A stretch of 64,000 nt of DNA from an uncultured Planctomycetia bacterium. Its GTDB lineage: Bacteria > Omnitrophota > Gorgyraeia > CAYWPX01. Shown piece by piece: positions 52,972 to 54,285 of the stretch. The notes under the pieces are model-generated. The model was not told the DNA's origin and did no database searches. It saw nothing but the letters and a program-made list of their open reading frames with translations. A program made the position numbers and the translations under genes. The stretch covers positions 120,073 through 184,072 of the forward strand of contig CAYWPX010000001.1 of NCBI GenBank assembly GCA_964460615.1. The letters are read 5' to 3'. The stretch's first letter is position 1. Each line of letters opens with the position of its first letter.

Positions 52972-53178
52972 ATGGATTCGTGCAAAAATTATAAAAAGAA
53001 TTTAGAAAAGTGCGCCTGTACCTATTCTTCCTGTTCCAGAAAAGGATATTGCTGTGAATGCGTAAGCTATCACAGAAGTAACAACGAAATACCGGCATGC
53101 TTTTTTAATAGTTCATTTGAATCGACCTATGATAGATCCGTTAACAATTTTATAAAAATGGTTAAGGGCAATAAATAA
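52972..53178 (+). CDS. small cysteine-rich protein (8 Cys in 68 aa)
   Basis: CKNY...CACTYSSCSRKGYCCEC...ACFF; family name not verified. Confidence 0.5.
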   Translation: MDSCKNYKKNLEKCACTYSSCSRKGYCCECVSYHRSNNEIPACFFNSSFESTYDRSVNNFIKMVKGNK

Positions 53179-53255
53179 GGTAGTTATGGTTAGTTTTGCT
53201 TTTTGAGCAAAACTACCTTAAACATGACACCTAAAATAAAGGAGGTGATTCATAA

Positions 53256-53501
53256 ATGGCAACAAAAGTAGCTAAGGTAGGAGTAAAAAGGGAGAAGGGT
53301 TTCCTTTACTTCATTGATAAGAATGGAGACGTTTCCAAGGCTAAGATGGCAAGAGGCAAGCAGAAAGGCGGCAAACCTCAGAAAGTAGCCAAGGTTGGCG
53401 TAAAGAAAGAAAAAGGATATCTCTATTTCCTCGATAAGCAGGGTGACGTTTCCCAGGCAAAGATGGTCAGAGGCGGTAAGAAAAAATCCAAAAAAAGATA
53501 A
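53256..53501 (+). CDS. small basic protein with two internal ~35-aa repeats
   Basis: KVAKVGVK[RK]EKG[FY]LYF[IL]DK[NQ]GDVS[KQ]AKM[AV]RG occurs twice; nucleotide copies differ mainly at third codon positions; AAGGAGG SD. Confidence 0.55.
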   Translation: MATKVAKVGVKREKGFLYFIDKNGDVSKAKMARGKQKGGKPQKVAKVGVKKEKGYLYFLDKQGDVSQAKMVRGGKKKSKKR

Positions 53502-53529
53502 TATTTTATCTTTTGTAGTATAAAAAAAG

Positions 53530-53575
53530 AACAGGTTTCCAAGAGATTAATCTCATGGAAACCTGTTTTTTCTTT
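53530..53575 (+). terminator. intrinsic terminator
   Basis: AACAGGTTTCC-loop-GGAAACCTGTT followed by TTTTTTCTTT. Confidence 0.7.
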
Positions 53576-53580
53576 AAAGC

Positions 53581-53615: not shown

Positions 53616-53969
53616 ATGAAAATAATAATAGATTTTATAACTCTTAATGAATTAAACCAGATGGCTCAAGCGATGTTTGGGGATATGGTTAAGGCTGTTG
53701 TTGATATAGATAGAGAGATTATAGCTCTTGATGCTGAACTTCATTCGGATCTTGAGGCATTACTTATTAAGGATGGTTCGAAGCAGAAAAATCTTTGGGG
53801 AATCAATTTTTATCCAGTTGTTGAAGGGGATGATTTTGTAGAATTTGATTCTTTAATTAATATCCGCCCATCTCAAGGCAATAAAAGCCGCAGCGTAGAT
53901 GACCTATCAATCCGAAAAAAAATTCTGGAAATCGTAGCAAAAAAGGTAAAAAATGAGTCTTCAACATAA
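53616..53969 (+). CDS. DUF5674-like small protein (recalled family resemblance, unverified)
   Basis: 117 aa; VKAVVDI...ELHSD.EALL..DGSKQ..LWGINFYP...FDSLINIRP..GN.SR pattern. Confidence 0.55.
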   Translation: MKIIIDFITLNELNQMAQAMFGDMVKAVVDIDREIIALDAELHSDLEALLIKDGSKQKNLWGINFYPVVEGDDFVEFDSLINIRPSQGNKSRSVDDLSIRKKILEIVAKKVKNESST

Positions 53970-54285
53970 AGATCTTGCCGCTGGACGCTGGAAAGAAATG
54001 TCTTTTGTGGACCAGATGGCAAATATCGGTAGCGAGGTTGAAAGGGCGTTAAACTGGCGAGCAAAGAATAATGCTTCTTTAAGCCAAAAAGCTCTTGAGC
54101 GTGCATTGGAATTATTGGATCTTTCTTTGGATGCAGTCAGTGAGATGTCGCGCCTTAAAGAACTGGCTCGTATACGCGAAACTATGGTAGATTTTTTTAT
54201 CGGCACAAATGAATTTAAGTCTAGCGAAATATTATGGAAAAGGTATTTTTTGCCGTTTGCCTATGCTTCCCGCCTGAAACATTAA
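53953..54285 (+). CDS. hypothetical protein, translationally coupled to upstream gene
   Basis: 110-aa ORF overlapping the previous gene by 17 nt; predicted helical. Confidence 0.5.
   Translation: MSLQHKDLAAGRWKEMSFVDQMANIGSEVERALNWRAKNNASLSQKALERALELLDLSLDAVSEMSRLKELARIRETMVDFFIGTNEFKSSEILWKRYFLPFAYASRLKH

Follow-up and report, generated by a model that had tools for sequence, protein, structure and literature searches.

An internally duplicated, strongly basic 81-residue protein shared by Omnitrophota and Woesearchaeota is a candidate nucleoid-associated DNA-binding protein

What is the role of a gene whose 81-residue, strongly basic product consists almost entirely of two similar halves? 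The question is raised by an open reading frame (ORF) at positions 53256 to 53501 of the window, the 64,000-nucleotide stretch of the Omnitrophota contig CAYWPX010000001.1 that was analyzed here. An earlier note, made from the sequence alone, had described the product as an anciently duplicated two-domain protein under purifying selection that probably binds nucleic acid. In appearance, the gene is an ordinary member of a large, uncharacterized, and unnamed family. Its product is, with a probability that we put at about 0.5, a DNA binder of the nucleoid-associated type with a new, pseudo-symmetric all-beta fold; the broader claim, that it binds nucleic acid of some kind, be it DNA or RNA, is probable.

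The ORF lies on the + strand, begins with an ATG, and encodes, stop codon included, exactly the two-repeat product that had been described. The protein has a mass of 9.0 kDa, a pI of 10.5, and a net charge of +20, with 26 lysines and arginines against 6 aspartates and glutamates. No signal peptide or hydrophobic segment was seen by eye in the translation, no competing ORF of at least 40 residues overlaps the gene in the ORF list of the window, and a protein 100% identical to the product is present in public data (P0001). Its small size and its internal repeat are the only features that could mark the gene as a spurious ORF or as a recent product of slippage or misassembly. Against this stand thousands of homologs, a synonymous divergence that is saturated while nonsynonymous divergence is low, differences at 30% of the nucleotides between the two halves, and a ribosome-binding site and terminator of its own. 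The homolog search and the divergence values given below refute an artifact, and the locus is a real gene under strong purifying selection.

The two units, residues 3 to 35 and 42 to 74, are identical at 25 of 33 positions (76%), or at 26 of 36 (72%) in a longer register. At the nucleotide level, the 108-nt unit copies differ at 32 sites, distributed 7/6/19 over the first, second, and third codon positions, and 13 of the 26 residues conserved between the units are encoded by different codons. The Nei-Gojobori proportions of synonymous (pS) and nonsynonymous (pN) differences between the halves are 0.75, which is saturated, and 0.18. This comparison bears out the earlier description of two copies that differ mainly at synonymous positions. 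The number of units was counted with a hidden Markov model (HMM) of the unit in 270 homologs, 262 of which have two; the exceptions carry one unit (three proteins), four (three), five (one), or seven (one). Among 238 two-unit homologs, the nearest unit in another protein occupied the same position for 387 of 476 units and the other position for 49, and the two positions have signatures of their own, such as unit position 30, which is alanine in unit 1 (85%) and valine in unit 2 (65%). Because the units group by position, the duplication is older than the radiation of the family, and the ancient origin claimed for it is upheld. Identity between units is 0.58 within proteins and 0.53 between proteins, and none of 1,000 permutations reached the observed value; the slight covariation of the two halves could be due to shared constraint, to composition, or to occasional gene conversion. 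In the alignment of close homologs (A1), the hairpin residues G, L, Y, D, and G are invariant, as are A29, M31, R33, and G34 of unit 1, while the unit 2 counterparts A68, M70, R72, and G73 are at least 90% conserved, not invariant; K37, G39, and P41 of the linker are conserved family-wide. The repeat is old, is maintained at the protein level, lies far beyond chance, and is not recent slippage.

Profile and word searches found thousands of homologs, where their complete absence, together with a lack of expression evidence, had been named in the earlier note as the outcome that would speak against it. With a word-indexed search (E ≤ 1e-3), at least 2,425 clusters (90% identity) were recovered; an exhaustive profile search recovered 1,222 cluster representatives (50% identity), of which 454 reached E ≤ 1e-10. 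The top 120 clusters are mostly 75 to 90% identical to the window protein and about 80 residues long, with a few longer ones at 58 to 66%, and contain no Pfam domain. All cluster members with names are called "hypothetical" or "uncharacterized" and come mostly from Candidatus Omnitrophota; a literature search that included the motif strings turned up no paper on the family. The JGI label "YcgL (UPF0745)" on one member is not backed by any profile match, and scans of the window protein against Pfam, NCBIfam, PHROGs, and PADLOC returned only sub-threshold noise (DotY, 0.0044; BaiB, 0.012; phrog_9154, 4e-4). The window protein shares the two motif units, the length of about 75 to 85 residues, and the pI above 10 that define the family in alignments A1 and A2; the family medians are a pI of 10.3 and a lysine-plus-arginine content of 31%.

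A scan of GTDB, with one genome per species, detected relatives encoded in at least 566 stretches. Among the best 80 of these, identity to the query ranges from 59 to 88%, with 68 to 75% on Woesearchaeota contigs, and the labels include Omnitrophota, Elusimicrobiota/Endomicrobia, Woesearchaeota, Myxococcota, Neomarinimicrobiota, Auribacterota, and others, although some genome labels ("Planctomycetia," "Methanosarcinales," and "Clostridia") are doubtful. Since the Woesearchaeota contigs carry archaeal genes (the oapB/oapC families and herA), the spread across domains is real. The comparison of 87 orthologs with the query gave a median amino acid identity of 73%, a median pS of 0.81 (saturated), and a median pN of 0.17. 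This is very strong purifying selection and, with the number of clusters, confirms that the gene encodes a selected protein. The 2.9 million viral contigs searched contained just 13 diverged relatives, and collections of isolate phages and plasmids contained none; on these grounds, an origin in mobile elements was rejected. The 13 viral relatives, 39 to 56% identical, lie on IMG/VR contigs that are classed as viral (L088 to L100), some of them 100 to 430 kb long.

AlphaFold2 was run on two independent alignments, of 39 and 99 sequences, and the runs agree, with a mean predicted local distance difference test score (pLDDT) of 89.6 and 89.5 and a predicted template modeling score of 0.69 and 0.71. 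The model has six strands (Table 1) and no helix. Confidence in the linker is as high as in the units, with pLDDT above 90, and falls to 61 to 70 only in tail residues 71 to 81; the pair of units therefore looks like one pseudo-symmetric domain. Of the two-domain architecture proposed earlier, the two units stand, and their independence looks less likely. The structure prediction that the note had proposed as a check for a two-fold-symmetric fold gave a confident six-strand all-beta model, in which the packing of the units, their pseudo-two-fold arrangement, and the charged surfaces are suggested by the confidence values. Foldseek comparisons with the PDB and with the viral structures of BFVD returned no fold neighbor below E 0.9, a profile search of PDB sequences returned nothing below E 0.39, and no fold shared with a solved nucleoid-associated protein was found.

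The assignment to the nucleoid-associated type is made because of the charge, the histone H1-like tails, the fusions to HNH and nuclease-like domains, and the uvrA, herA-mre11, and dnaA neighbors. Among longer family members, P0253 (201 residues) joins the two-unit module to an HNH endonuclease (Pfam, 1.3e-13), and P0170 (452 residues) joins it to a domain common to the PADLOC candidate defense proteins PDC-S18 (2e-12) and PDC-S11, in which a D..E-x-K-like motif was seen by eye. The module occurs with zinc ribbons, a GAF domain, and a prokaryotic RING in P0152 (468 residues) and P0189, and with zinc ribbons recognized by eye in P0213 and P0238. Long AKKP- or R-rich tails resembling those of histone H1 are present in P0218, P0223, P0138, P0042, and P0113. 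Other relatives (P0165, P0193, P0199, and P0174) have membrane segments, or a membrane segment and an OmpA domain, as in P0174 (257 residues). Large proteins with the module include P0121 (886 residues) and P0122 (354 residues), and examples extend to a seven-unit membrane protein and a five-unit protein.

The membrane-anchored relatives bear on the possibility that the module is a generic aromatic beta-hairpin that binds protein, an envelope polymer, polyphosphate, or acidic lipid, with its charge being incidental. Recurring Pfam matches among 99 diverse members were to DUF5050 (19 members), choline-binding repeats (8), and WW domains (5). All were sub-threshold, with the best E-values of 0.004 for DUF5050 and 0.028 for Choline_bind_3 short of the gathering threshold, and they reflect a generic aromatic beta-hairpin. 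This explanation is improbable: every match that could support it lies below its family threshold, the window protein has no visible secretion or membrane signal, the anchored relatives carry the module on the basic, presumably cytoplasmic, side of their membrane segments, and a family-wide charge of about +20 argues for a polyanionic ligand.

The true zinc ribbons that adjoin the module in P0152 and P0189 raise a further alternative, in which each unit is itself a degenerate zinc ribbon, now without its metal ligands, and the protein acts like the small zinc-ribbon binders of DNA or RNA. The three-stranded unit, the glycine after position 6, and the C-A-K-M at positions 26 to 29 resemble two knuckles, and cysteine is found at position 26 in 37% of units and at position 6 in 9%. 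Yet the ligand set is retained in 0 of 499 family units, a C-x-x-C pair likewise occurs in 0 of 499, and the window protein contains no cysteine; a zinc-ribbon identity was rejected on the missing ligand pattern. We consider descent from a zinc ribbon conceivable but very improbable; it concerns the origin of the unit and is compatible with DNA binding of the nucleoid-associated type. Unit position 26, which corresponds to K28 and Q67 of the window protein, is cysteine in both units of about half of the close homologs and arginine or lysine in others, an unusual exchange for a conserved site. Judging from these residues, redox sensing or metal binding through this cysteine may occur in some members.

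Gene neighbors were analyzed at 88 loci. The order in Omnitrophota is folK-panC-aspartate dehydrogenase-[repeat gene]-uvrA, with uvrA as the first downstream gene in 19 loci and the second in 4; another lineage has uvrA immediately upstream, in two loci (L053 and L054). At 7 of 13 archaeal loci, the neighbors include one or more of herA, a gene for an mre11-like phosphoesterase, a DHH/RecJ-like gene, and oapABC. Loci of DPANN/Woesearchaeota (L022, L057, L067, L068, L074, L078, and L041) recurrently show herA (DUF87), the mre11-like and DHH/RecJ-like genes, and the oapA-oapB-oapC (arvABC) GTPase operon. In three loci, tpiA, rpiB, and a gene of the dnaA cluster follow the repeat gene, with dnaA as the third gene from it in L031 and L032; DnaA is confirmed by Pfam only in L032, and the copy in L051 is cut by the contig end and was linked through cluster membership. 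The dnaA-like genes of L031 and L032 encode 617 to 627 residues, and by eye their products have a zinc-ribbon-like insert and a long acidic, proline-rich region past the ATPase domain.

The same loci bear on a role in RNA binding or at the ribosome, as a ribosomal accessory protein or RNA chaperone. Such a protein would be small, very basic, and extremely conserved and would have a very strong Shine-Dalgarno sequence, as ribosomal proteins and cold-shock-type chaperones do, and the analyses made do not separate DNA from RNA. Nevertheless, no identified conserved neighbor among the 88 loci is a ribosomal-protein or translation gene, no ribosomal protein family is matched in Pfam or NCBIfam, a patchy cross-domain distribution at about 70% identity is hard to square with a specific rRNA site, and the module is combined with HNH and nuclease-like domains and H1-like tails. 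An RNA ligand is thus unlikely.

In combination, the clues favor a nucleic acid as the ligand and, with less force, DNA in particular; the extreme conservation alongside saturated synonymous sites is in keeping with a universal ligand such as DNA. The nucleic-acid binding proposed in the earlier note is retained as probable on circumstantial grounds, namely the charge, the domain fusions, the basic tails, and the gene neighbors; the preference for DNA over RNA, an architectural role, and high abundance are likewise inferred. A cytoplasmic, monomer-sized protein would contain two 33-residue units, each a three-stranded antiparallel beta meander whose strands would be formed by K-V-A-K, by G-[YFW]-L-Y-[FY]-x-D-K-x-G-[DN]-[VI], and by S-x-A-K-M-x-R-G. 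Both units would pack as one pseudo-two-fold all-beta domain, on which conserved lysines and arginines of the loops, together with the disordered lysine tail, would produce the net charge. The phosphate backbone of DNA would be bound sequence-nonspecifically, with the two units providing equivalent contact surfaces, one apiece, so that a single chain could do the job of an HU-type dimer and coat, bend, or bridge DNA.

Several points weigh against DNA binding of this type. The ligand may be RNA or another polyanion, and the charged surfaces and the two-fold arrangement are read from the confidence values of a model. The membrane-anchored and OmpA-containing relatives show that the module also serves in other contexts. 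The neighbor signal is mostly synteny inside one phylum, and in many lineages the neighbors are unrelated. The oapABC genes were named for their place beside the main origin of replication in Haloferax, and OapA is the vesiculation GTPase ArvA (PMC10927574). The operon is now linked to vesicle formation rather than replication (PMC10927574), and adjacency to it is therefore at most positional evidence.

A bolder interpretation, which we offer only tentatively and consider doubtful as a whole, is that the family forms a hitherto unrecognized class of chromatin proteins that share a new, internally duplicated all-beta fold. It would be a major nucleoid protein in Omnitrophota, Elusimicrobiota, the DPANN Woesearchaeota, and others, and it would have moved between Bacteria and Archaea with its identity staying at about 70%. 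To our knowledge, most uncultured phyla have no known chromatin proteins, and the new chromatin families so far (Cren7, the bacterial histones, and HTa) have each changed views of genome packaging. The present family is large, with its 1,222 clusters at 50% identity, nearly invariant over distant lineages, unnamed, and devoid of a structural relative. If it binds DNA, it is a candidate for the main nucleoid protein of ultra-small, host-dependent lineages and a clean case of a pseudo-dimeric DNA binder that arose by internal duplication. If it does not, the 70 to 88% conservation of an 81-residue protein across Bacteria and Archaea still calls for an explanation. Its interest rests on this extreme conservation between Bacteria and DPANN Archaea, on the lack of an annotation or fold relative, and on the ease of testing, as a protein of this size can be produced and tested within days. 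A metaproteome of an Omnitrophota enrichment (Ca. Velamenicoccus) has been published, with tables that give accession numbers only (PMC12583861).

The features of the gene and its immediate surroundings are collected in Table 1.

Table 1. Coordinates of the repeat gene, its parts, and adjacent features in the window
Feature	Coordinates	Strand	Basis or remarks
Gene for 68-residue Cys-rich DUF6485 protein, directly 5′ of the repeat gene	52972..53178	+	Pfam, 1.5e-9
Hairpin without T-run	53176..53220	+	−22 kcal/mol, z −3.35; inverted repeat I4, 13-nt arms, 92% complementary
Extended Shine-Dalgarno sequence, AAGGAGGTGAT	53239..53249	+	Read from sequence; 6 nt 5′ of the ATG
Coding sequence of the repeat gene	53256..53501	+	Translation, composition, identical protein P0001
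Repeat unit 1, residues 3-35, TKVAKVGVKREKGFLYFIDKNGDVSKAKMARGK	53262..53360	+	Unit HMM, 7.1e-23; AlphaFold2 strands 3-6, 16-20, 26-30
Direct DNA repeat, two copies of 102 nt	53265..53366 and 53382..53483		75% identical; 117-nt spacing
Inter-unit linker, residues 36-41, QKGGKP	53361..53378	+	Alignment A1; pLDDT >90 throughout
Repeat unit 2, residues 42-74, QKVAKVGVKKEKGYLYFLDKQGDVSQAKMVRGG	53379..53477	+	Unit HMM, 7.8e-23; AlphaFold2 strands 42-45, 55-59, 65-69
Lysine-rich C-terminal tail, KKKSKKR, predicted disordered	53478..53498	+	pLDDT 61-70 over residues 71-81
Hairpin and T-run, intrinsic-terminator-like	53526..53577	+	Starts 25 nt past the stop; inverted repeat I1, 28-nt arms
DUF5674 gene	53616..53969	+	1.1e-36
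110-residue ORF	53953..54285	+	No Pfam match

The Shine-Dalgarno sequence comprises 11 nt that match the complement of the canonical 16S rRNA 3′ end, the anti-Shine-Dalgarno sequence that served as the reference. Downstream, positions 53526 to 53571 form a 46-nt hairpin followed by a T-run, with a folding energy of −27.8 kcal/mol (z −6.69) that was reached by none of 200 shuffled sequences; a simple terminator scanner overlooked this element, whose stem and loop exceed the limits of the scanner. The upstream hairpin starts at the stop codon of the DUF6485 gene and is likely a boundary or terminator-like element between that gene and the repeat gene. A promoter scan found no convincing promoter for the repeat gene in the region, and Rfam gave only sub-threshold hairpin matches there and no family. 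With its own Shine-Dalgarno sequence and flanking hairpins and terminator, the repeat gene looks like a separate transcription unit.

Upstream in the window are genes for an aminotransferase, folK, panC, panD, nadA, aspartate dehydrogenase, and the DUF6485 protein; downstream are DUF5674, the unannotated 110-residue ORF, a THUMP/RlmL-type methyltransferase, an Smr-domain protein, and a YgjP-like metallopeptidase. A function based on operon membership was rejected, as the folK-panC-(panD-nadA)-aspartate dehydrogenase genes are syntenic within Omnitrophota only and metabolically unrelated. Other Omnitrophota loci have no DUF6485 gene at this place, and aspartate dehydrogenase immediately precedes the repeat gene. 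The DUF5674 gene and the 110-residue ORF overlap by 17 nt and possibly form a two-gene unit that replaces the uvrA found here in most relatives. The unit HMM matched only the two units in all six frames of the window, which thus holds no further copy of the repeat family. Nearly all long ORFs of the window, whose GC content is 39.9%, lie on the + strand; the few long ORFs on the minus strand mostly overlap longer ones on the + strand, which suggests very strong co-orientation of the genes.

Compared with known systems, the zinc-ribbon mini-proteins have three-stranded units of similar length with a glycine after the first knuckle position and are often in tandem or fused to nucleic-acid enzymes; the family differs from them in its lack of the metal-ligand set. 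The aromatic beta-hairpin repeats (choline-binding repeats, WW domains, and DUF5050 or propeller blades) have the motif G-aromatic-x-Y-aromatic-x-D/N-x-x-G in common with the window protein, as well as a three-strand unit of about 33 to 38 residues. Those repeats are extracellular or protein-binding and not strongly basic, in contrast to the strictly paired units, presumed cytoplasmic location, and +20 charge of the protein here.

The established nucleoid-associated families offer the closest likenesses in character, above all Cren7 and Sul7d or HU. No Pfam or NCBIfam match to HU/IHF, H-NS, Lsr2, Alba, the histone fold, Cren7, Sul7d, MC1, or Hc1 was found for the window protein or 99 diverse relatives, and because both profile and fold tests fail, the protein is placed outside the Cren7, Sul7d, and HU families. 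Cren7 and Sul7d (Sso7d/Sac7d) are crenarchaeal chromatin proteins, lineage-restricted and highly conserved; they are monomeric, lysine-rich, and mostly beta, with a mass of 6 to 7 kDa, and bind DNA without sequence specificity. The window protein is similar to them in size, charge, and predicted beta content. HU/IHF (Bac_DNA_binding) differs in being alpha/beta with beta arms, against a helix-free model here, and in the absence of an HMM match. Like HU/IHF, the window protein is small, basic, widely conserved, and encoded by a stand-alone gene. Some HU relatives have H1-like lysine/alanine tails, and similar tails are present on some relatives of the window protein. In HU/IHF, the two-fold DNA-binding body is formed by a homodimer; here, an equivalent body would have been formed by internal duplication.
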